Below are positions 10,925 to 59,074 of a stretch of DNA of 64,000 nucleotides, piece by piece. The DNA comes from Chitinophagaceae bacterium. Its GTDB lineage: Bacteria > Bacteroidota > Bacteroidia > Chitinophagales > Chitinophagaceae. The stretch is taken from assembly GCA_036675565.1 (NCBI GenBank), contig JAKFER010000047.1:105756-169755 (forward strand). Direction: 5' to 3'. Below the pieces are notes generated by a model. That model made no database searches and was not told the origin of the DNA. It saw only the letters and a program-made list of their open reading frames with translations. Both the position numbers and the translations under genes were made by a program. Position 1 is the stretch's first letter. The number at the start of each line of letters is the position of its first letter.

Positions 10925-12442
10925 TTATTGATAATTCGGGTTTTGAACCAATAGGGTACCTTGTAATTCGTCGAAAGGAATGGGGAAGATTTCATTTTTG
11001 CCAGCTACAAATCCCCTGCTTCCTAATACCGTAGCTGCATCACCCCATCTAACTAAATCGAAAAACCGGTGACCTTCTCCAGCTAATTCCAGCCTGCGTT
11101 CTTCTTTAATGGCTGTCATAGAAACGGGTATAGATGGCAATCCAACCCTGGCCCTAACGGCATCTAACAACGCCTGTGCTCTTGTGCCAGTTCCACCCAA
11201 AGCCTCTGCTTCCATTAAATAAGTATCAGCCAAACGAATGATGTAAGTGTTTTGGCGGAAGTTTAATTCCTGTGCACCACCACCCGTTCTGACATCAGAT
11301 TGTCTTGGCAAAAATTTATTCAGAAAATACCCGGTGTTCTGGTAACCTTCAATATAATCCGCATGACCGGCAGCTTTAAGTGCTTTCAGATCGAAAACGG
11401 TCGCATTAAATCTTGGATCATTTTTGATGAAGTCATAAAAATCCTGTGTGAATACATTAAAGCTCCAGCCTGATGGAAGATCTGGTGCTGGTGAACCCGC
11501 AGGTTTTGAATAGCTTCTTGGTCCTACCATTACGTTAACGGAATTGCCTTCGTCATTGGCTCCTCCCCACCATCCCCAATCAGAATTACCTGCACTGGTA
11601 TGTGAAGCTTCCAGGATAGACTCACTGTTAAACTTATTACCCGTTACCCATAAGTCGCTAAAATTATCTAACAAGTCGTAACCATATTGGCTTGGTTGTC
11701 CCGGAACAGGTCCGTTAACTTCTGCAAATTGTGCAGCTGCCTGAGAATTCTTTCCCTGGTATAAAAGAACTTTACCTAACAATGCCTGTGCTGCTCCTTT
11801 AGTGAAACGACCTGCTTCTGTTGCAGCCGGAACAGTAGGAGGTAAAGCTGTGATTGCTTCGGTTAAATCCATTTCAATCTGTGCATACACCGCTTCGGGT
11901 GCTGCCTGTGTAACCTCGTAGATATTGGTGGCCGTCAATGGTTCTAAAAGCAATGGCACATTTTTAAACATTCTAACCAGGTTAAAATAAGATAGTGCCC
12001 TGAGTGCTTTTGCTTCAGCCTCAAACCTTGCCTTTAATGTAGCATCCATGTCTGTATCAGGTAATTTTTGCAGCAGTGTATTGGCTTTAAAAATCCCCTG
12101 GTAATGATCGTTCCAAAAACTGCCAGGCATGATCTGCGCATTCAGCGTGTAATTGGAAAATCCTTGTATGCCTGCACCATCTGTTGGTCCGCCACCACCT
12201 GCATAATGATCATCAGATCCTGCATTCATCATCGTGATCATGTTTTCAAAACCACCTGAATTTTTTCGCAGTACATCATATACGCCAACCAATGCACCAA
12301 ATGCCTGTGTTTGGTCTTTGTAATAATTCGCCGTTAGAAACTGACCCTGCGGTTCAATATCTACAAAGTCTTTGCTGCAGGATGCGAATGAGCATATCAT
12401 TGCCCCGGCAATCAGTAAATATTTATTTTTCATCATTTTCAT
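10925..12442 (-). CDS. SusD/RagB family nutrient-binding outer-membrane lipoprotein
   Basis: Lipobox FASC, TPR-like SusD signature regions (RALSYFNLVRMF; RRLELAGEGHRFFDLVRWG), and pairing with the upstream SusC. Confidence 0.9.
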   Translation of the reverse strand: MKMMKNKYLLIAGAMICSFASCSKDFVDIEPQGQFLTANYYKDQTQAFGALVGVYDVLRKNSGGFENMITMMNAGSDDHYAGGGGPTDGAGIQGFSNYTLNAQIMPGSFWNDHYQGIFKANTLLQKLPDTDMDATLKARFEAEAKALRALSYFNLVRMFKNVPLLLEPLTATNIYEVTQAAPEAVYAQIEMDLTEAITALPPTVPAATEAGRFTKGAAQALLGKVLLYQGKNSQAAAQFAEVNGPVPGQPSQYGYDLLDNFSDLWVTGNKFNSESILEASHTSAGNSDWGWWGGANDEGNSVNVMVGPRSYSKPAGSPAPDLPSGWSFNVFTQDFYDFIKNDPRFNATVFDLKALKAAGHADYIEGYQNTGYFLNKFLPRQSDVRTGGGAQELNFRQNTYIIRLADTYLMEAEALGGTGTRAQALLDAVRARVGLPSIPVSMTAIKEERRLELAGEGHRFFDLVRWGDAATVLGSRGFVAGKNEIFPIPFDELQGTLLVQNPNYQ

Positions 12443-29123: not shown

Positions 29124-29177
29124 AAATACAAAATTTATTGATAAATACCTGTTGATCCTGGTGGAAGTTTGATTATC

Positions 29178-30542
29178 TCATTTCAAATGCGGACTTTCGA
29201 ATCCCAATTTTTTTAATCCTGTTTTTATCTCAGGGCTACTCATAAACAGGTCCCATATAAAACCGGTTTTATGATTTTCCATCATCACAACAATAGGCCC
29301 CTGGTCAATGGCTAAATATCTTTGTGGATGCCAATTGGCTGTTTCGCTGAATGCATCATAAAAACCATATGGTCCCCATAGGCTGTCTTTTTTGGCTGTA
29401 TACCAGTGATGCATAGCCGCCATTGATTCTTTGGGAGTATACGGCATAGATGCAAGAGCGGCTGTTGGAGCGATTACACCAAGGTCTCTTTTTTCCCCCG
29501 GTGCATGGCCTGCGTAACCCCTGACGGAATAGCTGGATGTAAGTCCCCAACTATTTGGTCCGTAACCTTTGTAACCTAATTTGTTTTCAACACACCAGTT
29601 ATAATTTATCAGTGCCTGGTTTTGATTTTCTTTCCAATAATCAGCATACTGATCTTTCAATCCACGCGGATCAAGCCCCAAATAAGAATAGTGTGCCCAA
29701 AACAAAGGGCCACCATATTCTTCCGCGCCATTATGTTTTAACTGTAATGGATAACCGTATTTTGTTGTACTTCCTTTGATGGCTCCATTCTTTGCCCAGC
29801 CTTCATGATACACTTCCGCAGGCACAGCATGTGTTGGAGAAGATGCAGCAAGTACATACATGATCAGGCATTCATTGTAACCGCTCACCGGGAAATTCAT
29901 TCGCCATGCATGGTTTGGGCTCCAATGCCAGTACAATGTATTTTGCCCGTTCCTATACCAGTTAAAATCAACTGCACGCCAAAGATCATCTGCCCGTTTA
30001 GCTATTGCTTTCTCCTGTGCGGTTCCATTTTGCAGGTATTGTCTAACACATAATAATCCCTGCAGCATGAAAGAAGTTTCAACTAAATCGCCTCCATCAT
30101 CATAGCGACTGAAAGGTTTTGTCTTTCCTGTTTCGCCATTCCACCAATGTGGCCAAACACCATGGTAAGTATCAGCAGTTTCCAAAAAATTCATAATTCT
30201 TTCTAATCTCTCCAATCCTTGTTCCCTGGTTATCCATCCTCTTTCCATTCCAATTAAAATAGCCATTACGCCAAATCCACCACCACCACTGGTTACTACC
30301 ATTTTATCATTTTGCGGGTACACGCCATCCACATGAAATCTTTCCCTGGCTAAACCACTGTTTGGTTCAGCGCCATCCCAGAAATACTGAAAGGTTCCTT
30401 TTTGTATAGCCGTATAAATGCTGTCCATATCCGCAGGTATTGCATTAATTGTTTTGGCGGAAGTAGTTTTGGGAGGGTTGCTGCATGCATGTAAAAAGAT
30501 CATGTAAATAAAAATGGCTGGCAGAAAAAAAATTTGTCTCAT
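29178..30542 (-). CDS. GH144-like (PF10091 'glucoamylase-like') candidate endo-beta-1,2-glucanase; lipoprotein
   Basis: Lipobox LHAC. FQYFWDGAEPNSGLARER and later (alpha/alpha)6-type W-rich blocks resemble the family that includes Chitinophaga endo-beta-1,2-glucanase. Family assignment is from memory, not from a search. Confidence 0.6.
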   Translation of the reverse strand: MRQIFFLPAIFIYMIFLHACSNPPKTTSAKTINAIPADMDSIYTAIQKGTFQYFWDGAEPNSGLARERFHVDGVYPQNDKMVVTSGGGGFGVMAILIGMERGWITREQGLERLERIMNFLETADTYHGVWPHWWNGETGKTKPFSRYDDGGDLVETSFMLQGLLCVRQYLQNGTAQEKAIAKRADDLWRAVDFNWYRNGQNTLYWHWSPNHAWRMNFPVSGYNECLIMYVLAASSPTHAVPAEVYHEGWAKNGAIKGSTTKYGYPLQLKHNGAEEYGGPLFWAHYSYLGLDPRGLKDQYADYWKENQNQALINYNWCVENKLGYKGYGPNSWGLTSSYSVRGYAGHAPGEKRDLGVIAPTAALASMPYTPKESMAAMHHWYTAKKDSLWGPYGFYDAFSETANWHPQRYLAIDQGPIVVMMENHKTGFIWDLFMSSPEIKTGLKKLGFESPHLK

Positions 30543-30589
30543 GGCGTATGATTTTTTCTAGATGTATAAGCAATCAGGTTTTTATGTCA

Positions 30590-32269
30590 TTAAAGATTGG
30601 GACTTTGAAAACCAAGATTTGTCATTCCTGTTTTTATTTCCGGCGCACTCATAAACAGATCCCAAATAAGTCCTGTACGATAATTTTCAATCATTAAAAT
30701 GATTGGTCCCTGGTCAATAGCCAGGAATGAATTGGCAAACCATTGGTCATGCAGGGAAAACGCATCTACAAATCCATACTCTTTCCATAGTTTATCGCCC
30801 AGAACATAATAATAAAATTTCAATGAGGCCATAGATTGATCAGGTGTATACGGAAAAGATGATAAGGCGGCTGTTGGTGCAATAACGCCTACATCATTTG
30901 TTGGCGAACTGGCCGTATAACCATTTTGAATATCACTGGCCGTAAGTCCCCAAACTGAATCACTGTAACCAAAATAATTTTTAGGATTTGATTGGATGTA
31001 TTTATAATTTATCAGTGCATGGTTTGTATTCTGTTGCCAGTAGTCGGCATAAGCATCGGTAAGATCTTTTGGATTAATTCCTAGAAATGAATAATGGGAA
31101 AAGAAAAGCGGGCCGCCCTGTGCAGGGCCTAACGGTAATGTATGGCCGTAATACGTGTTTCCATTCTTCATGCTGCCATTAGATGCCCAGCCATTATCAT
31201 ATACGGATTTTGGAATGGCATGGGTAGGGGATGATGCAGCCAGTACATAGGTTATTAAACTTTCGTTCCAGCCTGTAATTTTGTGATTCATTTCCCAGCC
31301 ATAATTCGGGCTCCAGTGCCAGTATAAAACATCTTCATTATTCTTCCTGAACCAGTCCCATTCCACGCGGTGCCAAATGGTGTTAATGTCGTTGCGTAAG
31401 GCAGTTTCGGCTGCATCATTACTATTAAAATACTGGCGGGCTGTTAATAATCCGGCCACGAGGAAAGAAGTTTCAACCAAATCCGCTCCATCATCTTTAG
31501 CACTGAAAGGGATTACAACTCCTGTATTACCATTTAACCAATGCGGGAATGCGCCATGAAAATGTTGTGCGGTATTTTTTAAAAATCCAACAATTTTTTG
31601 CAATCTTTCAAGGCCCTGGGCACGGGAAATAAAATTTCGTTCAATCGCTACCGGTAGTGCCATGATACCAAAACCAGAGCCACCAGTTGTAACCAGGTCG
31701 CCGGAGGTATTTCTTTCTCTCGCCAGCCCGCTGTTTGGATGCGCAAAGTCCCAGAAATATTTAAATGTTTGTTGTTGTACGAGAGTTAATAAAGCAGCGT
31801 TGCTAATGATAGGAAACTTATAGGTTGAATCAAGTCTGGTAAGAAATGAAAAAATGACCGGGGTTTGTAATTTTCCTCCCGACTTTGATTGCAATCCCGT
31901 TGTTATTGAAATGTTGTGCCGGGTAAGATATTTTAATGGTGCATTTGGGGCGATCACAATAGTACTATCGCCGTTTTCCAGTTTGGTATTAAATCCAATG
32001 CTTGTTCCTGTTTTATCAGTAAACGAGATGTTTTGCTGAACGGAATTGTTTTGTATAGGTGCTTTAAATTTTATTTTAATTGAAGGAGAAACATTTGTAT
32101 TTCTATACTCTGATAAATTGTTTACCCCATCAACGCTGGTTGATTGCATGCCAAAAGATACAGGAGCTGGTGGAGGCGGAGCAGGATCAGGTTCTGATGA
32201 ACTTTTAGAACAGTTCAAAAAGACCAGGCAGATAAAGCAATGGATTATTATAATATGTAAACTTTTCAT
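30590..32269 (-). CDS. GH144-like paralogue with an N-terminal Ig-like domain; lipoprotein
   Basis: Lipobox LNCS, a ~140-aa Ig-like N-domain, then a region colinear with 29178-30542 (FKYFWDFAHPNSGLARER ... AIDQGPII(L/V)M(I/M)EN(Y/H)(R/K)TG(L/F)IWDLFMS(A/S)PEIKTG). Confidence 0.6.
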   Translation of the reverse strand: MKSLHIIIIHCFICLVFLNCSKSSSEPDPAPPPPAPVSFGMQSTSVDGVNNLSEYRNTNVSPSIKIKFKAPIQNNSVQQNISFTDKTGTSIGFNTKLENGDSTIVIAPNAPLKYLTRHNISITTGLQSKSGGKLQTPVIFSFLTRLDSTYKFPIISNAALLTLVQQQTFKYFWDFAHPNSGLARERNTSGDLVTTGGSGFGIMALPVAIERNFISRAQGLERLQKIVGFLKNTAQHFHGAFPHWLNGNTGVVIPFSAKDDGADLVETSFLVAGLLTARQYFNSNDAAETALRNDINTIWHRVEWDWFRKNNEDVLYWHWSPNYGWEMNHKITGWNESLITYVLAASSPTHAIPKSVYDNGWASNGSMKNGNTYYGHTLPLGPAQGGPLFFSHYSFLGINPKDLTDAYADYWQQNTNHALINYKYIQSNPKNYFGYSDSVWGLTASDIQNGYTASSPTNDVGVIAPTAALSSFPYTPDQSMASLKFYYYVLGDKLWKEYGFVDAFSLHDQWFANSFLAIDQGPIILMIENYRTGLIWDLFMSAPEIKTGMTNLGFQSPNL

Positions 32270-43641: not shown

Positions 43642-44577
43642 ATGGAACAAGAATTATTCGATCAGAAACTTGATAAAGAGATCCGCATTGAGCCGCGAGA
43701 CTGGATGCCGGAAAAATATCGTCAGACTTTGATACGCCAGGTAAGCCAGCATGCACATAGTGAAATAGTTGGAATGTTACCAGAGGGCAACTGGATCAGC
43801 CGGGCTCCTTCTTTAAAAAGAAAACAAATATTAATAGCGAAAGTGCAGGATGAAGCTGGTCATGGGCTCTACTTATATTCCGCTGCTGAAACGCTGGGTA
43901 TCAGTCGTGATGAGATGATTGATCAATTACATTCTGGGAAGGCAAAATATTCATCCATTTTTAATTATCCTGCAACTACCTGGGCGGATATGGGAGCGAT
44001 AGGCTGGTTGGTTGATGGTGCTGCCATTATGAACCAGGTTCCTCTTTGCCGTGCATCTTACGGACCATATAGCCGTGCAATGATCCGCATTTGTAAAGAA
44101 GAAAGTTTTCACCAGCGCCAGGGTTTTGAAATATTATTAATGTTATGCCAGGGCAGTCCTGAACAAAAAGCAATGGCGCAGGATGCATTCAATAGATGGT
44201 GGTGGCCAAGCCTGATGATGTTTGGTCCGCACGATAGTGATTCCCCCCATACCGAACAAAGTATGCAATGGAAGATCAAGCGTTTCAGCAACGATGAATT
44301 AAGACAACGATTTGTAGATATGATCGCCGAACAGGCAAACGTTCTTGGACTCACAGTTCCGGATCCCGATCTGAAATGGAACGAAGAGCGAAAGCATTAT
44401 GATTTTGGTGAAATTAACTGGGACGAATTCTGGAACGTGGTAAAAGGTAATGGTCCCTGTAATAAGGAACGTCTTACTGCCCGTCGTAATGCACATGAAG
44501 AAGGTGCATGGGTGCGGGAAGCTGCAGTAGCATATGCTGAAAAAAGAGCCATGCGGCAAAAACAGAACGCAGCGTGA
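43642..44577 (+). CDS. paaA: 1,2-phenylacetyl-CoA epoxidase catalytic subunit PaaA
   Basis: Colinear with E. coli PaaA from [61 protein letters not shown] at 43642; the track start at 43579 is a TTG extension. Confidence 0.95.
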
Positions 44578-44719
44578 GTAGTTGGATGGTTGAATGGTTG
44601 TTAAGTTTGAATGTCCAAGTTGGAATTAGGGTATTGGGAATTTGGAATTGGGCTTACAATTAGTCAAATGGTTAATGTATTAAACTAAGCACTAAACTCT
44701 AAACCCTAAACAAATTAAA
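44578..44719 (+). repeat. Composite intergenic repeat, copy A (GGTTGA-rich block, tandem TGGAATT repeats, CTAAAC-type A/C-rich block) filling the paaA-paaB spacer
   Basis: GTAGTTGGATGGTTGAATGGTTGTTAAGTTT...GTTGGAATTAGGGTATTGGGAATTTGGAATTGGG...AATTAGT...GTATTAAACTAAGCACTAAACTCTAAACCCTAAAC shares its block order with 56955-57124. Confidence 0.6.
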
Positions 44720-44833
44720 ATGAGGAATCTTTTAAAAAAATATTATTACGGTGATTATGATGCCATAGAAGGTGGTGGTTTACCAAATGATTCAGAGAAA
44801 AAAGTTGATAAAAACGCTGTTTCTTTAACGCCA

Positions 44834-45127
44834 ATGGTAAGTGGTTCAACGGCCTGGCCACTATGGGAAGTTTTTATTCGCAGCAAACAAGGCCTGGATC
44901 ATAAACATGCAGGTAGTTTGCATGCTGCCGATGCTGCAATGGCTATTGAAAATGCACGGGATGTGTACACACGCCGTCAGGAAGGTGTAAGTATCTGGGT
45001 GGTTGAAAGCAAACATATCCACGCCACCAATCCTGATGATGCCGAAAGTTTTTATGAGCCCGCAAACGACAAGGTTTATCGTCATCCAACATTTTATGAT
45101 TTACCTGATGAAGTGAAGCATATGTAA
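44834..45127 (+). CDS. paaB: 1,2-phenylacetyl-CoA epoxidase subunit PaaB
   Basis: MVSGSTAWPLWEVFIRSKQGL.HKHAGSLHAAD...VYRHPTFY aligns from residue 1 of E. coli PaaB. The ORF is open back to the ATG at 44720 (a 38-aa extension of uncertain reality). Confidence 0.9.
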   Translation: MVSGSTAWPLWEVFIRSKQGLDHKHAGSLHAADAAMAIENARDVYTRRQEGVSIWVVESKHIHATNPDDAESFYEPANDKVYRHPTFYDLPDEVKHM

Positions 45128-45133
45128 CTGATG

Positions 45134-45168
45134 TTGGAATTGGGGATTTGGAATTTGGAATTGGGTGG
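45134..45168 (+). repeat. Left TGGAATT tandem-repeat arm
   Basis: GTTGGAATTGGGGATTTGGAATTTGGAATTGGGTGG: four units with a 7-8-nt period. Confidence 0.7.
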
Positions 45169-45192
45169 TGAAATTCACAAAAACTTTAGGCG

Positions 45193-45209
45193 TTTGAATA
45201 GTATTCAAA
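45193..45209. promoter_or_regulatory. Perfect 8+1+8 palindrome upstream of the four-helix-bundle gene
   Basis: TTTGAATA-G-TATTCAAA, 16 nt upstream of the ATG at 45225. Confidence 0.3.
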
Positions 45210-45224
45210 TTAATTAATTAAAAA

Positions 45225-45619
45225 ATGCCCGCATCAAATTCATATAAAGGTTTTAAGGATTTAGACTGCTGGAAAAAAGGCAGAGAATTAAGAAATATAA
45301 TTTCAGCGTTGGTGAAAAAATTCCCACCTGAAGAAAAGTATCAACTGGTGTCACAAATGATTCGATCCCGTCGTTCTGTTACAAACAATATGGCCGAAGG
45401 TTATGGAAGGTTTACGTATACTGATACCCGGCATTTTTTTATCCAGGCTAGGGGTTCAGTTACTGAAATAATCGATCATTTGGTAATTGCGCTTGATGAA
45501 AATATATCTCAAAAGAAGATTTTTCCGCAATAGAGATTATGTGTGAATCCGTATTTAAATTAATAAATGGCTATATCAATTATTTAGATAAACAAAATAA
45601 AGAATCATATCCTCAATAG
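45225..45619 (+). pseudogene. Four-helix-bundle protein gene (23S rRNA intervening-sequence protein / DGR Avd family, PF05635), disrupted by a 1-nt frameshift
   Basis: Frame 0 gives ...FKDLDCWKKGRELRNII..KFPPEEKYQLVSQMIRS..S.TNNMAEGYGRF...ARGS..E and stops at 45533. The family-typical C-terminus (KEDFSAIEIMCESVFKLINGYINYLDKQ) continues in another frame to 45619. One extra A in the A4 run at 45511-45514 restores a ~130-aa ORF. Confidence 0.75.
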
Positions 45620-45644
45620 ATTTTTTAAGTTGGTCTTTAAAAAT

Positions 45645-45672
45645 AATTCCTAATTCCCAATCCCAAATTCCT
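45645..45672 (-). repeat. Right TGGAATT tandem-repeat arm (inverted)
   Basis: Plus strand reads AATTCCTAATTCCCAATCCCAAATTCCT; the reverse complement is AGGAATTTGGGATTGGGAATTAGGAATT. It ends 1 nt before the paaC ATG (G45673 intervenes). Confidence 0.7.
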
Positions 45673-45673
45673 G

Positions 45674-46483
45674 ATGCAATCATATCAACTCTTTACCCAC
45701 TCTCTTCACCTCGCCGACAATGCTTTGATCCTTTCCCAGCGAAATAGTGAATGGTGTGGCCATGGACCGGTGCTGGAACAAGACATAGCTATTACCAATA
45801 TTTCACTCGACTTACTGGGACAAGCCAAGAACTTTTACGCCTATGCCGCGGAATTGTACAATGGTTTTTCGGATGATGAAAAAAATGCGGCTGACCATGT
45901 TATTCCAAGGCCATGGAAAAATTATGGAAGAGAGATTAATGAAGATGATCTTGCTTTTTTGCGGGATGAAAATCAATACCTTAATTTTTTAATGCTTGAA
46001 TTGCCCAGAGGAGATTGGGCGTTTACAACTTTGCGTCAATTCCTTTTCAGTGCCTGGCAATTTGATTTGTATACGAATTTGATGAAAAGTCCGGACGCAA
46101 CTATTGCAGCCATTGCAGATAAATCGCTTAAAGAAGTGACTTACCATTTGCGCTGGAGCAGTGAGTGGGTTATTCGTCTGGGTGATGGTACAGATGAAAG
46201 TCATGCCCGTATGCAAAAAGCTGTTGATGATCTTTGGATGTATACCGGGGAAATGTTTGAACCTTTTATGGATCAATCTTTGGTTCTGGGACTCGATTCA
46301 AAAGTTCTGCAGCAGTCCTGGTTCAGCCGCGTAAAAGATATTTTTGACGAAGCTACCCTGAACATGCCTGTTAGTGGATGGATGCAAACAGGTGGAACGA
46401 GTGGCAGGCATACGGAACACCTTGGATATATATTGGCAGAGATGCAATACCTGCAAAGAACTTTTCCAAACGCAACCTGGTAA
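45674..46483 (+). CDS. paaC: 1,2-phenylacetyl-CoA epoxidase structural subunit PaaC
   Basis: LADNALILSQRNSEWCGHGP.LEQDIA..NI.LD..GQA is typical PaaC/PaaI-oxygenase; the gene follows paaB and precedes paaD. Confidence 0.9.
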   Translation: MQSYQLFTHSLHLADNALILSQRNSEWCGHGPVLEQDIAITNISLDLLGQAKNFYAYAAELYNGFSDDEKNAADHVIPRPWKNYGREINEDDLAFLRDENQYLNFLMLELPRGDWAFTTLRQFLFSAWQFDLYTNLMKSPDATIAAIADKSLKEVTYHLRWSSEWVIRLGDGTDESHARMQKAVDDLWMYTGEMFEPFMDQSLVLGLDSKVLQQSWFSRVKDIFDEATLNMPVSGWMQTGGTSGRHTEHLGYILAEMQYLQRTFPNATW

Positions 46484-46491
46484 TTTTTTAA

Positions 46492-47010
46492 ATGAACAAA
46501 ACATCCTTACATACAACTGATCCTGCATTGGTAACACACCAGATCTGGAAGATCCTCGAAGAAGTGAACGATCCGGAAGTGCCTGTATTGTCGGTTATTG
46601 ATTTGGGTATTGTGAGGGATGTTGTTTTTAATGATAACCAATACGAAGTAATTATTACACCTACTTATTCTGGTTGTCCTGCAATGGATGTAATTAATAT
46701 GAATATTCGGCTTAAGTTAATGGAGTATGGAATGAGGGATGTTTTGGTAAAACAGGTTTTATCTCCAGCCTGGACAACAGACTGGATGTCTGAAGCCGGC
46801 AAAGAAAAATTAAAAGCATTTGGTATTGCACCTCCCAATCCGAAGCAACAGGTTTGCAGCACGGCTTTATTTGCTGATGAATCAGTGCAATGTCCGCATT
46901 GCAGCTCTTATAATACAACCCGCATCAGCGAGTTTGGCAGCACGGCCTGTAAATCTCTTTATCGCTGCGAACAATGTAAAGAGCCGTTTGATTATTTTAA
47001 ATGCCATTAA
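46492..47010 (+). CDS. paaD: Phenylacetyl-CoA epoxidase subunit PaaD (PaaJ)
   Basis: DUF59/MIP18-like N-domain (VNDPEVPVLSVIDLGIV...TPTYSGCPA) and a C-terminal Cys4 ribbon (CPHCSS...CEQCKEPF). Confidence 0.9.
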   Translation: MNKTSLHTTDPALVTHQIWKILEEVNDPEVPVLSVIDLGIVRDVVFNDNQYEVIITPTYSGCPAMDVINMNIRLKLMEYGMRDVLVKQVLSPAWTTDWMSEAGKEKLKAFGIAPPNPKQQVCSTALFADESVQCPHCSSYNTTRISEFGSTACKSLYRCEQCKEPFDYFKCH

Positions 47011-47021
47011 AAACAATGTGG

Positions 47022-47052
47022 CAATTTGATAATTTGAAAATTTGAAAATAGG
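47022..47052 (+). repeat. Degenerate AATTTGA tandem repeat (possible decayed TGGAATT-type block)
   Basis: CAATTTGATAATTTGAAAATTTGAAAATAGG directly after the paaD stop, with the same 7-8-nt period as the TGGAATT arms. Confidence 0.3.
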
Positions 47053-47140
47053 TTTTTCGAAGATTTTGTAATACTGCCTTTATACAATTTCGGTTAAACC
47101 CTTGATTATTTATTAAGGGAATTTGTTGTTAATACTGGAC

Positions 47141-47164
47141 AACTAAACACCTAAACGTTTAAAC
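47141..47164 (+). repeat. CTAAAC-type A/C-rich block
   Basis: AACTAAACACCTAAACGTTTAAAC resembles 44683-44710 and 57089-57119. Confidence 0.4.
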
Positions 47165-47169
47165 AATTC

Positions 47170-48111
47170 TCACTTAAAAGCATCCACTTCCCGGTAAGCT
47201 TTTATCAATGCAATTTCACCATCTTTTCCCGGTTGTGCATTACCGTGCTCCATGCCTACAATTCCTTTAAAACCTTTGTTGTAAATATGCTTGAAAATAT
47301 TTTTGTAGTTCATTTCACCGGTTGTGGGTTCTTTGCGGCCCGGGTTATCTCCAACCTGTAAATAAGCAATCTCCTCCCAGCATCGATCTATATTGGCAAT
47401 GATGTCGCCTTCATTACGCTGCATGTGATAGGCATCGTATAAAATCTTACATGCCGGGCTATTCACCGCTTTGCAGATCATATATGTCTGATGCGAATGA
47501 CGGAGAAAAAGATCCGGGTTATCACTCAATGGTTCCAATACCATCACCAATCCATGTTTATCCAGGATCTCGCTGCCCTTACGTAATGCCGTTATAACAT
47601 TTGCAGTCTGCATTTCATGCGATAAACTGCGATCATAATTTCCCGGTACAACGGTCATCCATTTTGCATTAACCCTTTTGGCCACTTCAACTGCATCCTT
47701 GCAATCTTTGATCATTTTATCTATCCATTCCTGCTTGCCGGTTGTTAATGTAGTTTTCCAGTGCCAGTTATCTGTCGTAATAACAAACACCCCCATTCTC
47801 ATTCCCAATTTTGCCAGGGTATCTCCAATCTTTTTTTGTTGTTCCGGTGTGCGGGCCATCATCCCATTATCTTCAATACTTCTGAAACCCTGTTCGTGTG
47901 CCCATTTTATCTGGTCCGTAAAAGATTCGCCTCCGTGTTGACGGAACATGCCATCATGAAATGCATAATCCAGGTTAAACAATTTATTGTTATTTGCTAA
48001 ATCATTTATTGAAGATGAAGGTGAATGAGTTACTGATGCAAACGATTGCGCAACGGAAGCAAACCCAGCGCCTGTCAATAATGAGTTTTTTAGAAAGTTT
48101 CTACGTTCCAT
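47170..48111 (-). CDS. TAT-exported xylose-isomerase-like TIM-barrel protein (sugar phosphate isomerase/epimerase or hydroxypyruvate-isomerase-like)
   Basis: Twin-arginine leader MERRNFLKNSLLTGAGFAS from the ATG at 48111; AP_endonuc_2-type barrel blocks (VLEPL, YDAYHMQ, VGMEH). Confidence 0.8.
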   Translation of the reverse strand: MERRNFLKNSLLTGAGFASVAQSFASVTHSPSSSINDLANNNKLFNLDYAFHDGMFRQHGGESFTDQIKWAHEQGFRSIEDNGMMARTPEQQKKIGDTLAKLGMRMGVFVITTDNWHWKTTLTTGKQEWIDKMIKDCKDAVEVAKRVNAKWMTVVPGNYDRSLSHEMQTANVITALRKGSEILDKHGLVMVLEPLSDNPDLFLRHSHQTYMICKAVNSPACKILYDAYHMQRNEGDIIANIDRCWEEIAYLQVGDNPGRKEPTTGEMNYKNIFKHIYNKGFKGIVGMEHGNAQPGKDGEIALIKAYREVDAFK

Positions 48112-48149
48112 ATTTTTTATCTTTGAGAATAAATGTAAGGTTTCATATA

Positions 48150-49139
48150 ATGTGCAGATTGTTCCTGATTGTTTTATTGATTTCTTCATCCGCGTACGGA
48201 CAAACTTCTAGGTTTCAATTTACGGAAAATAAAATGGGATCGCCGTTTCGAATTATTTTTTATCACACGGATTCCGCCGAAGCAAGTCTGGTGGCCCAAG
48301 AAAGTTTTGATCTTGTTGATTCGTTGAATTTAATTTTCAGTGATTATGATACTAAAAGTGAAATAAGCCAACTGGCTGTTCATGCTGGCAAACATCCCCA
48401 AAAAATATCACCAGCTTTGTTTGATGTAATGAAATTATCTGTTGAAGCCAATCAAAATTCGCAAAATGCTTTTTCCATATATGCAGGGGCATTAACCAAA
48501 TTATGGCGCCATGCAAGAAGCGAAAATAAATTTCCTGAAAAAAAGACAGTCAAAAAAGCACTTCGCTTATCCTCTAAAAAATATTTTAAATTTTTTCCCC
48601 GCGATGCTTCAATGTTCATTTCAGCAAATGGAGCCTCATTGGATTTTGGTGGCATCGTAAAAGGTTATACCGCACAAAAAGTGATTGAACTTCTTCATGC
48701 CAAAAATAATCACCATGCACTTGTGGATGCCGGAGGCGATATAGTTATGAGCAAACCTCCTCCGGGAAAAAAAGGCTGGTCCATTGCAGTAAGTTTACCT
48801 GGTGATGAAGAGGAATTGGTTGAGCAACAATTGCTATTAAGTGATAAGGCTGTTGCTACATCCGGGAACATGTATCAATTTATTGAACATGATGGTAAAA
48901 AATATTCACACATTATCAATCCAAAAACCGGGTATGGTATTACAGATCAGCGGCAGGTAACAGTTATTGCAAATGATGGTGCCACCGCAGACTGGCTTGC
49001 AACTGCATGCAGTATTTTACCCATATCCAAAGCTTTGAAACTTGCCGAATCTGAAAATGCATCTTTGTTAATTCTTGAAATATCTGGTGGGGTTATTTCA
49101 GCCCATAAATCGGCTACATTTAACCGTTATCTTAAATAA
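48150..49139 (+). CDS. apbE: FAD:protein FMN transferase ApbE (exported)
   Basis: Signal peptide MCRLFLIVLLISSSAYG, then ApbE blocks (MGSPFRI, S.ISQL, DFGGIVKGY, VDAGGDI, ATSGNMYQF...HIINPKTG). Confidence 0.85.
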   Translation: MCRLFLIVLLISSSAYGQTSRFQFTENKMGSPFRIIFYHTDSAEASLVAQESFDLVDSLNLIFSDYDTKSEISQLAVHAGKHPQKISPALFDVMKLSVEANQNSQNAFSIYAGALTKLWRHARSENKFPEKKTVKKALRLSSKKYFKFFPRDASMFISANGASLDFGGIVKGYTAQKVIELLHAKNNHHALVDAGGDIVMSKPPPGKKGWSIAVSLPGDEEELVEQQLLLSDKAVATSGNMYQFIEHDGKKYSHIINPKTGYGITDQRQVTVIANDGATADWLATACSILPISKALKLAESENASLLILEISGGVISAHKSATFNRYLK

Positions 49140-52770: not shown

Positions 52771-52800
52771 TCCTCTAAACCATTTCTAACATCTAAACTA
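52771..52800 (+). repeat. CTAAAC-type A/C-rich block immediately upstream of a start codon
   Basis: TCCTCTAAACCATTTCTAACATCTAAACTA ends 5 nt before the ATG at 52806. Compare CCTCTAAACTGATT-ATG at 57110-57127. Confidence 0.35.
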
Positions 52801-52805
52801 GGCTT

Positions 52806-53537
52806 ATGAGAAAACTTTCATTATGGGCACGTGGGCATATTATGCTTACCCGCTTCTTAATTGGTTTGCTATATGTTGTTTTGAATTTATTGGCGTTATT
52901 CTTAGGCGACTTATTATTTTCTGCAGACATAGTCCTTCCTATTTTATTTATTTATCTCCCTCTTGCATTATTTTTTACAGGATTAATAATTTACCCGGTT
53001 AAAGAAAGAAAACACAGCTACAAAAATTTTTATTTTCAACAAAAATCGGCAGATCTGTTGCTGGCAGTATCAACCTTTCTTATTGTAGTTTATGGAGGTA
53101 ATGCTTTCAATAAGACCTCTCAAACCCCTCTCTCATCTGCCTATGCCACCAGTTTTTCCATTCCTTCAAATAAACTGGTAAATACAAGCTCTAAAATTGA
53201 ATCTAAGGAGGAGTCTAAACCGGCAGCAAAGAAACCCGTTTCCAAGAAAGAATTAAAAAAGAAACTCAAAAGTAAATGGAAAGAATTTCGCAAACATTAT
53301 AAGGAATCTACCAAAGGAGAAAAGGCAGCGCTTATCATTCTCTCAATTATTATTGCTGCGGGGTTATTACTGTTATTGGCAGGATTATCATGCGAACTTT
53401 CATGTGCAGGTTCAGATGGGGCAGCCGTTGTAGTTGGTCTTTTGGGAACCGGGTTAATCATCTTTTTATTGGTGCGGGTTATCCAAAGAATTAATCGGGG
53501 TCCACGAGTTAAAAAAGCCCCCGCTGAAACCACCTGA
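52806..53537 (+). CDS. Hypothetical multi-pass membrane protein with a Lys/Ser-rich linker
   Basis: Hydrophobic segments at both ends and a central KESKPAAKKPVSKKELKKKLKSKWKEFRK stretch. I recognise no family. Confidence 0.5.
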   Translation: MRKLSLWARGHIMLTRFLIGLLYVVLNLLALFLGDLLFSADIVLPILFIYLPLALFFTGLIIYPVKERKHSYKNFYFQQKSADLLLAVSTFLIVVYGGNAFNKTSQTPLSSAYATSFSIPSNKLVNTSSKIESKEESKPAAKKPVSKKELKKKLKSKWKEFRKHYKESTKGEKAALIILSIIIAAGLLLLLAGLSCELSCAGSDGAAVVVGLLGTGLIIFLLVRVIQRINRGPRVKKAPAETT

Positions 53538-55448: not shown

Positions 55449-56954
55449 ATGAGCGATCTCAAAGTTTACAATTCATTAACCAGGAAAAAAGAAGTTTTTG
55501 AAAGTATAACACCCGGTCATGCCGGCATGTATGTTTGCGGTCCTACAGTAAGTGGAGAAAGTCATTTAGGACATGCACGCCCTTATATTACATTCGATGT
55601 GGTTTATCGCTACCTGATGCACCTTGGGTATAAAGTTCGTTATGTACGTAACATAACAGACGCCGGCCATTTTGAAGAAGAAGGTCGTGAAGCGGAAGAT
55701 AAAATTTCAAAAAAGGCTGTTCTTGAAAAATTGGAGCCTATGGAACTGGTACAGAAATACACCAACTTGTATCACTGGGCTATGGATCAATTCAATTGCC
55801 TGCCGCCTTCGATAGAGCCTACAGCTACTGGACATATCGTGGAGCAGATCAACATGATTGAAACATTGATTAAAGCAGGGTATGCTTATGAAATAAATGG
55901 CAGTGTATATTTTGATGTAAAAAAGTATGCAGCCAATTATGATTATGGTAAACTGAGTGGCCGGGTGATAGAAGATATGCTGGAAACTACCAGGGAATTG
56001 GAAGGGCAGGAAGAAAAAAGGAATAAGGCTGATTTCGCATTATGGAAAGCTGCACCGGCAGAACACATTATGCGCTGGAAAAGCCCTTGGGGAGAAGGTT
56101 TCCCGGGATGGCATATCGAATGTTCTGCAATGGCTACCAAATATTTGGGTGCGCAATTTGATATTCACGGTGGTGGAATGGACCTGCAGTTTCCACATCA
56201 TGAAAGCGAGATTGCTCAAAGTACCATTTGCAATCATGTTGCCCCTGTCCGTTATTGGATGCATAATAATATGATCACTATCAACGGCCGTAAAATGGGT
56301 AAAAGCTATAACAATGTGATCCGGCTGACCGAATTGTTTACCGGTGATCATCCTTTATTGGAAAAAGCCTATTCGCCCATGACGGTGCGTTTCTTCATAC
56401 TTCAAACGCATTACCGCAGTACGCTTGATTTCGGGAATGATGCCCTGCTGGCTGCTGAAAAAGGATTGAAACGTTTAATGGAAGCCCATGAATGGTTTCA
56501 GAAAATGAACATTTCTAACGATGATGGACATGCGGGAAATGTAAACCAGGAACTGGATGAAAAAGTGATTAGGTTGTTGAACGAGTTTGATGAATTTATC
56601 AATGATGATTTCAGCACGGCGAAAGTGCTGGCTAATATGTTCGAACTGGTGCCCATTATTAATTCCTTAAAAGATAAAAACATACCTGTTCATTCCTTAC
56701 ATGCTGCAACCCTGGAAATTTTGCAACAAAAAATGAAAGTTTATATAGAAGACATATTGGGATTAAAGACCGAAACCTTGGCAGAAGGTGAAAAGTTGAA
56801 TGGTGTGTTGCAGGTATTAATAGACTTACGTAAACAGGCCCGCGAAAAAAAGGACTGGGCCACATCTGATAAGATCCGTAACCAACTGGCCGAGATCGGG
56901 ATTTTGTTGAAAGATGAAAAAAATGGGGATATGAGTTGGGGAATGGTTGATTAG
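55449..56954 (+). CDS. cysS: Cysteine--tRNA ligase
   Basis: HLGHAR (HIGH) and KMGKSYNN (KMSKS) motifs, the CysRS Zn-site context (CGPT, HIECS) and a C-terminal DALR-2-like domain. Confidence 0.97.
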   Translation: MSDLKVYNSLTRKKEVFESITPGHAGMYVCGPTVSGESHLGHARPYITFDVVYRYLMHLGYKVRYVRNITDAGHFEEEGREAEDKISKKAVLEKLEPMELVQKYTNLYHWAMDQFNCLPPSIEPTATGHIVEQINMIETLIKAGYAYEINGSVYFDVKKYAANYDYGKLSGRVIEDMLETTRELEGQEEKRNKADFALWKAAPAEHIMRWKSPWGEGFPGWHIECSAMATKYLGAQFDIHGGGMDLQFPHHESEIAQSTICNHVAPVRYWMHNNMITINGRKMGKSYNNVIRLTELFTGDHPLLEKAYSPMTVRFFILQTHYRSTLDFGNDALLAAEKGLKRLMEAHEWFQKMNISNDDGHAGNVNQELDEKVIRLLNEFDEFINDDFSTAKVLANMFELVPIINSLKDKNIPVHSLHAATLEILQQKMKVYIEDILGLKTETLAEGEKLNGVLQVLIDLRKQAREKKDWATSDKIRNQLAEIGILLKDEKNGDMSWGMVD

Positions 56955-57124
56955 TTGAAAGGTTGATAAGTTTCTTAGTATTGGAATTTGGAATTAGGAT
57001 ATTTGGAATTAGGCTGGAATTAGTTGATTAGTTGAATGATTATAGGTTGATACGTTCCAGGAATTGGATAAAAATAACTGTATTAAAAACAACTAAACGC
57101 TCAACCCTCACCTCTAAACTGATT
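56955..57124 (+). repeat. Composite intergenic repeat, copy D, filling the cysS to alkA-like spacer
   Basis: TTGAAAGGTTGATAAGTTT...TTGGAATTTGGAATTAGGATATTTGGAATTAGGCTGGAATTAGT...GTATTAAAAACAACTAAACGCTCAACCCTCACCTCTAAAC has the same block order as 44578-44719. Confidence 0.6.
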
Positions 57125-57739
57125 ATGGATTATCTCGCTCATCTTGCAAAAGATAAGAAACTGGCAAAAGTTTTAAATGGGCAAAAGCCGTTTAAACTGA
57201 AGATCAGGAAAAATATTCCACTGAGACTTTGTGCATCGATCATGAGCCAGCAACTTTCCGTTAACGTAGCCGAAGTTATTTTCCGAAGATTTTTAGAACT
57301 CTATGATGGAGAAGAGCCCACTTCACAACAAATTGTTGATACATCTTTTGAAAAGCTTAGAAGCATTGGATTGTCAAATGCCAAAGTATCCTACGTTCAG
57401 AATGTTGCTCACTTTTGTATGGAACATAAAATTGATGATAAAAAGCTGAAGAAGATGAGTGATGAAGATATCATCGGATTACTTATGCAAATTAAAGGAG
57501 TGGGCAAATGGACAGTAGAAATGTTATTAATGTTTACGCTGGGTCGCCCGGATATTTTTGCCATTGATGATTATGGTATTCAAAGCGCTATGAAAAAGAT
57601 CTATGGTTTGGATGACAGCAATAAAAAAGAATTTCGTGAAAAGCTATTGAAGATCTCCGCTAAATGGAGCCCGTTTCGTACTTATGCCTGCCTGCATTTA
57701 TGGAACTGGAAGGATAACAAGCCTTTGAATGAAAAATAG
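57125..57739 (+). CDS. DNA-3-methyladenine glycosylase II family (AlkA-like, HhH-GPD)
   Basis: HhH-GPD block IKGVGKWTVEMLLMFTLGRPDIFAIDDYG. ATG at 57125; the track's TTG start at 57032 lies inside the repeat. Confidence 0.8.
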   Translation: MDYLAHLAKDKKLAKVLNGQKPFKLKIRKNIPLRLCASIMSQQLSVNVAEVIFRRFLELYDGEEPTSQQIVDTSFEKLRSIGLSNAKVSYVQNVAHFCMEHKIDDKKLKKMSDEDIIGLLMQIKGVGKWTVEMLLMFTLGRPDIFAIDDYGIQSAMKKIYGLDDSNKKEFREKLLKISAKWSPFRTYACLHLWNWKDNKPLNEK

Positions 57740-58930: not shown

Positions 58931-59074
58931 GTGTAAACTACTCATATCCAGTTATAAAATGTTAAACATTTTAATAAAAAATTTATCAAGGGAATTGGGA
59001 AAAATCAGTATCCCAGTTAAAAATGGAATATAAGAGCAGGATTATAATAGTATAATTATTGCATATCATGAAAA

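Follow-up and report, generated by a model that had tools for sequence, protein, structure and literature searches.

Why should 142 nt of repetitive, non-coding DNA separate paaA from paaB, two genes that encode subunits of one enzyme? The locus lies in a 64-kb stretch (64,000 nt, hereafter the window) of the Chitinophagaceae contig JAKFER010000047.1 (positions 105,756 to 169,755 of the forward strand). An initial annotation, made from the letters alone, had described the paaA–paaB spacer as copy A of an intergenic repeat family, with a second full copy, copy D, downstream of cysS. We found that copy A is a real, inherited repeat built of 7- to 8-base tandem arrays, and it is best read as a member of the known class of intergenic heptamer arrays (STRR, GGGAATC and TAACTGA). 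Such arrays are already known; the part most worth following is their link to cassettes that carry the gene of an intervening-sequence protein (IVP).

Copy A and copy D are composites of tandem arrays

The proposal that the repeat sits exactly between stop and start codons, with its blocks in a fixed order, was borne out by our analysis, and the coordinates given for the two copies are correct. The copies and their parts, including arrays called by Tandem Repeats Finder (TRF), are as follows.

44578..44719, plus strand: copy A, the entire paaA–paaB spacer, an array composite without an open reading frame (ORF)
44578..44613, plus strand: A block 1, a C-poor, G-rich octamer array of the GGTTGAww type (TRF 44581-44600, period 8)
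44620..44654, plus strand: A block 2, GGAATTn heptamers (repeat family D8), the arm word of the clade-4 IVP cassettes described below (TRF 44622-44652, period 7, unit GGAATTG)
44655..44686, plus strand: A centre, containing AATTAGTCAAATGGTTAATGTATTAA, partly common to D and the orthologues by alignment
44687..44711, plus strand: A block 3, G-poor, C-rich CTAAACn heptamers ending 8 nt before the paaB ATG (TRF 44692-44711, period 7, unit CTAAACC)
56955..57124, plus strand: copy D, the cysS–HhH-GPD spacer, a paralogue of A with the same three blocks and extra words of the block-1 type (TRF 56981-57010, period 7; 57019-57035, period 8)

Copy A extends from the first base after the paaA TGA (44575-44577) to the last base before the paaB ATG (44720), and copy D from the first base after the cysS TAG (56952-56954) to the last base before the ATG at 57125. 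The flanking genes were verified by Pfam as PaaA, PaaB, CysS and an HhH-GPD glycosylase. Homologues share the N-terminal ..YYGDY.. motif of PaaB, which secures the paaB start. The two copies have the same build: C-free, G-rich arrays, with GGTTGAww preceding GGAATTn, lead to a short centre, behind which a G-free, C-rich CTAAACn array runs to within 5-8 nt of the following ATG.

The two full copies in the window lie 12.4 kb apart. Their likeness, on which the proposed family had been staked, stays clearly above background: the local alignment of A with D scores 60, compared with 19.4±2.8 for shuffled sequences (z = 14) and with 34 for the best of 725 other 170-nt tiles of the window, and column identity in a MAFFT alignment is 72%. 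The word TTGGAATTNGG with at most one mismatch is not enriched as such in the window (16 observed, 11.7 expected); its exact matches, eight out of eight, are confined to three arrays, namely copy A, 45134-45165 and copy D. The single GGGAATTGGGA at 58990, previously counted as a piece of the family, is at chance level, GGAATT occurring 60 times in the window.

Head-to-tail units of period 7 or 8, repeated at least 2-3 times in non-coding DNA between verified genes, place A and D among the heptamer arrays. The units of the cyanobacterial STRR class include CCCCAGT, TTGGTCA and CAACAGT. Neither these nor the other published units (GGGAATC/GGGANTN, GGGGAyT and TAACTGA) match the GGTTGAww, GGAATTn and CTAAACn words found here, among which GGGAATT resembles GGGANTN loosely.

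Copy A does not fold on itself

The initial annotation had suggested that the halves of copy A would pair internally in RNA with tolerance for G-U, as a processing or stability hairpin. The strand-asymmetric composition, with a G/U-rich half followed by an A/C-rich half, agrees with this suggestion, and block 2 indeed pairs with block 3 in the minimum-free-energy fold. However, the fold energies are the same as those of shuffled sequences (z = -0.14 for A and +0.22 for D), the block 2:block 3 duplex reaches -17.0 kcal/mol at a z of -1.5, and Watson-Crick complementarity between the G-half and the C-half is at chance level in A (p 0.90), in D (p 0.72), in the array pair at 47022-47164 and in the A orthologues. 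The 7-nt complementarity of TTAGGGT with ACCCTAA, offered as an example of such pairing, is also at chance level. Rfam gave no match in the window at the gathering threshold, and on 44300-47400 its sole match was a microRNA at chance level (E 0.76). We therefore rejected A and D as RNA hairpins, and consider a self-folding role for copy A highly improbable.

Other candidate signals were sought in the same region. No terminator or sigma-70 promoter was found inside A, where counts equal those of shuffles, Bacteroidota-type promoters being outside the scope of the tool. Inverted repeats of at least 10 nt are absent from 44540-44760, and D holds one 10-nt pair. As read from the sequence, A lacks the four or more G3 runs of a potential G-quadruplex, with three isolated GGG in block 2 and no GGG run in blocks 1 and 3.

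An IVP cassette occupies the next spacer of the operon

One spacer downstream in the same operon, between paaB and paaC, lies an IVP cassette that the initial annotation overlooked.

45134..45168, plus strand: 5' arm of the cassette, a GGAATTn array
45225..45533, plus strand: IVP four-helix-bundle ORF (PF05635, TIGR02436), truncated by a frameshift, with DNA homology to related cassettes running on to ~45609
45645..45672, plus strand: 3' arm of the cassette, an AATTCCn array that is inverted and complementary to the 5' arm and reaches the paaC ATG

The two arrays, which had been taken for decayed copies of the repeat, are instead inverted arms around the IVP ORF. They are 89% complementary over 27 nt, with a complementarity score of 42 against 13.5±3 for shuffles, and in the minimum-free-energy structure of the region (556 nt) they are paired with each other. 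The ORF encodes a 23S rRNA intervening-sequence protein (PF05635 at 1.5e-23; TIGR02436, 'four helix bundle protein'), for which the nearest solved structure is Xcc0516 (PDB 2GSC). The gene (45225-45620) is a pseudogene: an A-run near 45495 is shorter by 1 nt, which puts the rest of the gene, with its conserved C-terminal helix (KLINGYINYLDK), into the +1 frame, where it reads on to the TAG at 45618-45620. This frameshifted sequence is identical in five independent assemblies.

Two features of an intervening-sequence (IVS) cassette, the ORF and the long stem, are thus present in the 45134-45672 element, with the stem at 45134-45168 / 45645-45672, and are absent from A and D. As for insertion into 23S rRNA, the paaABCD operon is the site of both copy A and the cassette, and Rfam detects no rRNA in the window.

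The 3' arm of the cassette (45641-45676) has a second possible partner in copy A block 2 (44618-44656): this duplex reaches -34.2 kcal/mol and is slightly stronger than the one between the two arms of the cassette, at -31.4 kcal/mol. In this folding model, the stem between block 2 and the 3' arm would loop out paaB together with the IVP gene. The pairing follows from a cross-element comparison given below, in which the own arms of cassettes are no more complementary than foreign ones.

The cassette layout recurs in genomes, metagenomes and plasmids

We retrieved 80 Bacteroidota loci via PaaA (the closest PaaA among species representatives is 82% identical), and a metagenome scan with a 9-sequence IVP alignment added 80 IVP loci; individual loci are cited by L-numbers. 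IVP genes are found in the paaB–paaC spacer of L011, L012, L017, L064 and L066, and in L065, L092 and L122 the paaA–paaB spacer, where copy A lies in the window, holds an IVP cassette, those of L092 and L122 belonging to another IVP clade. Every IVP gene in the PaaA-derived loci has a short-period, G-rich array on the 5' side and a complementary, C-rich array on the 3' side, and the flank complementarity of 14 of the 17 elements lies above the 95th percentile of 292 control ORFs. Across genomes and metagenomes, these arms are present in 74 of 88 non-redundant IVP elements, and the C content of the 5' arm is 2.8%.

Arm words vary among the elements (GGAATT, GGTTGAT, GTGAGTA, GAAATCGAAAT, GAGCTATGA and others) and track the clade of the IVP protein. 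Cassettes of clade 4 (GGAATT) occur at at least seven different gene junctions, which argues that the ORF and its arms behave as one unit that has moved. Cassette ORFs also decay, as seen in the frameshift in the window and a 5' deletion in L173.

The same layout is found on cyanobacterial and Riemerella plasmids (L166-L171). Inverted heptamer arrays bracket the IVP gene in four of these six loci, with the words GGGTGTA in Calothrix, GGAGTCA in Nostoc C052, GGAGATA in Picosynechococcus and GGTTyAA in Riemerella; the exceptions are Pseudanabaena, which has direct arrays on both sides, and one locus with a single-sided array. The IVP genes of the cyanobacterial plasmids sit between co-directional genes, for example cas6–cas4 and cas10–cmr3, and another junction among the plasmid loci is integrase–hypothetical. 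IVP genes within cas operons had been noted previously.

Two side observations concern these loci. One of the 292 control ORFs has a flank-complementarity score of 99, far above any IVP element, and may be another small gene with inverted-repeat flanks. In L097 (576-625), L134 (downstream of 5378), L123 and L144, a C-type array is read as the first codons of PaaC, with N termini such as MTQLINQSTDQLISY and MPITNSEFPITNSQLLITNQLI, array DNA having been absorbed into the coding sequence.

Arrays are polar, and ORF-less forms are common

A TRF census of 1.47 Mb, in which neighbouring pairs within 800 nt were considered, recovered 74 G-type and 76 C-type arrays. Neighbouring arrays follow the order G then C in 20 cases and C then G in two. 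The spacing of the pairs is bimodal, at 370-480 nt with an IVP ORF inside and at 8-150 nt without an ORF, and periods 7 and 8 dominate both types of array in the relatives. Within co-directional spacers, sense G-arrays are stop-proximal by 26 to 4 and sense C-arrays start-proximal by 21 to 10.

The ORF-less versions are common, both as clean hairpins, one of which lies in the paaA–paaB spacer of L025, and as composites with non-complementary halves like copy A (L008:5903-6072 and L050). The length of the paaA–paaB spacer, 142 nt, had been called unexpected. This is true by the standard of E. coli but does not hold for Bacteroidota: across 75 paa operons of this phylum the median spacer is ~48 nt, 21 spacers measure at least 100 nt, and the long ones often hold arrays or inserted genes.

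Inheritance and turnover in relatives

The family does have relatives elsewhere, as orthologous spacers in the closest relatives and as related arrays in many Bacteroidota. PaaB is 84-88% identical in the closest relatives recovered. In all relatives with the paaA–paaB junction on the contig, the spacer at the A site is 142-191 nt long and holds the same three blocks as copy A, with varying unit numbers. The orthologous spacers of L172-L178, a comparison that the initial annotation had called for, are indeed related to copy A; block 1 is expanded or contracted among them, and block 3 is conserved in L173-L178 as well as in L179, the D orthologue. All contigs of relatives that reach downstream of paaB have an IVP cassette between paaB and paaC. 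In L173 (2030-2260), its ORF has lost the first ~150 nt, with 76 aa remaining. The paaA–paaB spacer of L173 is 100% identical to copy A and stands beside a paaB that is 88% identical in nucleotides, a combination that suggests a mosaic or recombination.

Copy D aligns with the A orthologues including the centre, and an exact 27-mer is common to D and the A orthologue of L174. At the D site, L179 (an 89% relative) has an 80-nt spacer in which a GGTTGA array is followed directly by ACTAAGCTCTAAACCCTAAACCCTAAAC, with no block 2, and the spacer of L181, L183 and L184 (77-79% identity) is array-free and 42 nt long. The same strain is represented in several Logan and ENA assemblies, and among the near-identical contigs L001-L005 no variation in repeat number was found in the arrays. 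As far as these alignments reach, they show that the family is vertically inherited and changes by gain or loss of units and of whole blocks. Since arrays are present at the A site in close relatives and absent from the D site in distant ones, we infer that the family entered these spacers in an ancestor of this genus-level clade.

Other arrays and features in the window and paa loci

Three further arrays in the window had been listed as partial pieces of the family.

47022..47052, plus strand: G-type array of AATTTGAw units in a convergent spacer, behind the stop of paaD
47141..47164, plus strand: C-type CTAAAC array adjoining the stop of the minus-strand gene 47170-48189
52771..52800, plus strand: solo array of the CTAAAC type, its end 6 nt upstream of the ATG at 52806

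The arrays at 47022-47052 and 47141-47164 constitute a G-type and a C-type array within one convergent spacer rather than pieces of a copy, and 52771-52800 likewise reads as a CTAAAC array in front of a start codon. Of the 15 CTAAAC hexamers on the plus strand of the window, nine fall within four spacers. The 47022-47164 spacer also has a terminator-like hairpin at 47099-47119, and its two arrays are not complementary.

Features of other kinds were also noted. Adjacent ~1.4-kb segments at 29173-31779, which are 71-82% identical over stretches of 50-140 nt (repeat families D1, D2, D6, D9 and D16), are probably tandem paralogous genes. Several Chitinophagaceae have another short, hairpin-like repeat, CCCCAAACCCCTCCAAAGGAGGGGCTT or a variant of it, either at the paaA 3' end or in a spacer of the paa genes (L009:11345-11375, L014:10930-10945, L017:10915-10945, L030:10945-10975, L064:8655-8675 and L072:1600-1630). 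Unrelated ORFs are inserted between paaA and paaB in other Bacteroidota (L019, L036, L040 at ~10930-11400, L072:1690-2210 and L057). They range from a small, lipoprotein-like gene through an ORF of 170 aa with TTGTGATATC inverted repeats on either side to an insert of 2.2 kb. The paaA–paaB junction is a recurrent insertion site.

Origin and role of copy A

With confidence slightly better than even, we favour the interpretation that copy A is an ORF-less, non-hairpin composite of the same array system that forms the arms of the IVS-like cassettes, and that it is a tolerated, co-transcribed spacer. A profile of A, D and their orthologues, searched against 1.8 Mb of related sequence, matched at full length only A, D and the orthologues. 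Its next-best matches (E 3e-9 to 2e-6) were on the minus strand, blocks 1 and 2 aligning with compound 3' arms of cassettes; such arms, of the form [AATTCC][TCAACC] in L097, L123, L125 and L144, mirror blocks 1 and 2 of copy A. In the reciprocal direction, a DNA profile of clade-4 cassettes matches A and D over the GGAATT arm only. A by-eye match of the A centre to the LINGYI codons of the IVP ORF was also considered, and is not supported by the cassette profile.

The complete unit of this system is a small IVP gene with a G-rich, C-free array on its 5' side and a complementary, C-rich, G-free array on its 3' side, placed between a co-directional stop and start. Copy A has two G-type arrays, one of them in the GGAATTn word of the neighbouring cassette's clade, followed by a CTAAACn array abutting the paaB start, and is presumably co-transcribed with the paa genes. 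The arms of a full cassette are predicted to pair in the operon transcript as a ~30-bp stem with a mismatch at every seventh base, and this stem may be cut by RNase III, by analogy with the 23S rRNA IVS, for which Coxiella is the precedent. Copy A itself is most likely only a tolerated spacer, its G-free 3' block serving as the paaB leader, and its block 2 could be an alternative partner of the cassette's 3' arm.

Several observations weigh against this interpretation. With the cassette DNA profile, A and D yield no trace of the IVP ORF and none of an AATTCC 3' arm, so that the descent of copy A from a full cassette is read only from arm words, position and architecture. The block 3 word, CTAAAC, is not seen as an arm in any sampled IVP cassette. 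Within the GGAATT class, complementarity is 41.1 for own arms and 39.3 for foreign arms (p 0.15). Arm stems of heptamers consist of 6-bp helices split by single mismatches, with a median of 30 nt and five positions 95-99% paired; bases are mismatched in 47% of cases at phase 4, the one variable position, in 21% at phase 6 and in 1-5% at each of the five others. Mismatches of the G:U type, which would wobble on the sense strand, number 87 against 65 (p 0.09) and are not in significant excess. On these three results, base pairing is not demonstrated as a selected property of the arms, and a protein that recognises the word, which might be the IVP pentamer, would account for the data equally well. 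Furthermore, aligned columns of the A spacer are 85-88% identical among the relatives, a figure inflated by low-complexity alignment, against 60-73% at third codon positions of paaB, which hints at constraint, and hence at a function of its own rather than a relic. The count of A and D copies, finally, is drawn from 64 kb of the source genome.

The main rival to the tolerated-spacer interpretation, which we nevertheless regard as unlikely, is that copy A is a dedicated cis-regulatory intercistronic element, its heptamers being bound by S1, Csp or a similar protein with affinity for single-stranded RNA, or its CTAAAC array serving as a translation-initiation leader. Bacteroidota rarely use Shine-Dalgarno pairing. 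CTAAAC arrays end 5-8 nt before an ATG in three spacers of the window, and the clustering of CTAAAC hexamers in four spacers, the start-proximal bias of C-type and stop-proximal bias of G-type arrays, and the excess of spacer identity over paaB third-position identity, with block 3 the best conserved part, all speak for such a role, as does its likeness to a proposal made for TAACTGA repeats upstream of starts (PMC4679880) and for Nostoc heptamers. However, the C-type array at 47141-47164 stands beside a stop codon in a convergent spacer and so cannot act there as a leader. The array words are wholly different among spacers and genomes, so that no single binding specificity fits; hairpin versions would sequester the C-array; and distant relatives do with array-free spacers of 42-48 nt.

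It is improbable, in our view, that A and D constitute an independent miniature mobile element, akin to a miniature inverted-repeat transposable element (MITE) or a REPIN, which shares only simple words with the IVP cassettes. Two paralogues within 12.4 kb do align over their full length, including the non-repetitive centre, and the array-free cysS-site spacers of distant relatives are consistent with insertion. Yet the copies lack inverted repeats at their termini, a target duplication is not recognisable, the 1.8 Mb of related sequence holds no other full-length copies beyond the orthologues, and blocks 1 and 2 specifically match cassette arms. The blocks also come and go separately, L179 being without block 2. 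No transposase, whether of the RAYT type (the transposase associated with repetitive extragenic palindromes, REP) or another, is linked to copy A, although none was looked for in the window. We give just as little weight to the notion that the arrays are neutral simple sequence made by slippage, with no function and no origin in common with the cassettes. The differing unit numbers of close relatives (L175 and L178) would agree with it, as would the statement in PMC4692102 that heptameric simple sequence repeats are over-represented in many bacterial genomes. Slippage alone, however, is not expected to produce a G-then-C order of 20 to 2, clade-specific words common to both arms, a three-block order that is kept in the orthologues and in D, or the exact 27-mer of D and the A orthologue of L174.

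To our knowledge, the intergenic heptamer arrays (STRR, GGGAATC and TAACTGA) have been on record for decades with no accepted origin or function, and we know of no role for the IVP/S23p family outside diversity-generating retroelements. Our data join the two: complementary arrays regularly bracket an IVP gene, the word tracks the protein clade, the site between cistrons recurs in two phyla or more, and words and polarity are common to the cassettes and to ORF-less elements like copy A. A wider proposal, which is speculative and which we hold to be doubtful as a whole, is that IVP (four-helix-bundle, Avd-like) genes and their clade-specific inverted heptamers constitute a single class of mobile operon-spacer cassette, widespread but unrecognised, in Bacteroidota and Cyanobacteria, and as rRNA IVS elsewhere. 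The IVP pentamer would read its own word, arms having ~4-5 units, or the arrays would be laid down symmetrically at insertion; ORF-less A and D, and perhaps much STRR and GGGAATC DNA, would be non-autonomous copies or footprints, and copy A would supply, in its block 2, a third functional arm able to pair with the cassette's 3' arm and loop out paaB. Should the link between IVP genes and arrays be confirmed, the 23S rRNA IVS would be one habitat of a general operon-spacer element, many bacterial heptamer arrays would gain a testable origin, and RNase III processing or protein recognition of heptamers would be indicated as the mechanism. For annotation, the array system accounts for long spacers within Bacteroidota operons that look structured.

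Comparison with known systems

Like REP/REPIN sequences and MITEs, copy A is short, dispersed, intergenic and non-coding, and possibly a non-autonomous relative of a gene-carrying element. The term 'REP/MITE-like' used in the initial annotation is therefore partly apt, in that the blocks are of the arm type of a cassette found in at least seven genomic contexts; unlike those elements, copy A lacks both a palindrome and inverted termini, and a target duplication is not discernible. TAACTGA direct repeats have been described in Beggiatoaceae, cyanobacteria and a few Bacteroidetes, alongside other heptamers (MacGregor 2015, PMC4679880), and they too are tandem heptamers ending within a few nucleotides of a start codon. 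In contrast to the arrays studied here, the TAACTGA word contains both G and C, the repeats are direct only, and neither a G-then-C layout nor an IVP link is described for them. Nostoc heptamers near start codons are also known.

G-rich heptamer arrays are known as GGGAATC in Xanthomonas and GGGGAyT in Nostoc (Rehm et al. 2015, PMC4692102). As in our case, these are intergenic heptamers, mostly of ~4 units, whose word resembles GGAATTn, and the Xanthomonas arrays adjoin the end of the upstream ORF as the G-arrays do here. Convergent (inverted) array pairs number 70-75 in Xanthomonas and only a few in Nostoc (PMC4692102). They differ in phylum and in words, and they were read as G-quadruplex formers, whereas GGAATTn and GGTTGAww lack the G-runs required for a G-quadruplex. 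The text of PMC4692102 contains neither S23 nor 'hypothetical protein', and hence no IVP link. A link between IVP genes and heptamer arrays was likewise not found in the searchable literature, which is an incomplete set, so a prior description is possible. The cyanobacterial STRR sequences, as summarised in PMC2670836, are 7-bp spacer repeats that can form hairpins, one being the hairpin of the hupS–hupL spacer; this site, like that of copy A, lies between two subunit genes of one enzyme. Arrays of this sort also flank IVP genes on the cyanobacterial plasmids. STRR words and phylum differ from those of copy A, and copy A is not a hairpin.

The closest counterpart of the paa cassette carries the same kind of gene. 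A 23S rRNA IVS with an S23p/IVP ORF is known from Leptospira, Coxiella and Xanthomonas (Ralph & McClelland 1993; Warrier et al. 2016, PMC4990558). That of Coxiella has an S23p ORF, a 28-bp terminal stem that RNase III cuts in vitro, and 2-3 tandem GACAGAT heptamers at the cleavage site (PMC4990558). Unlike the 23S IVS, the paa cassette is located between protein-coding cistrons, and its arms are whole arrays with a mismatch at every seventh base; copy A differs further in having neither ORF nor stem. The 23S IVS and the paa cassette are nevertheless alike in their PF05635 protein, in an ORF in sense to the host transcript, in complementary termini and in a decaying ORF, and the 23S IVS, with its ~28-bp stem, also has tandem heptamers in the 5' stem region whose copy number varies among strains.

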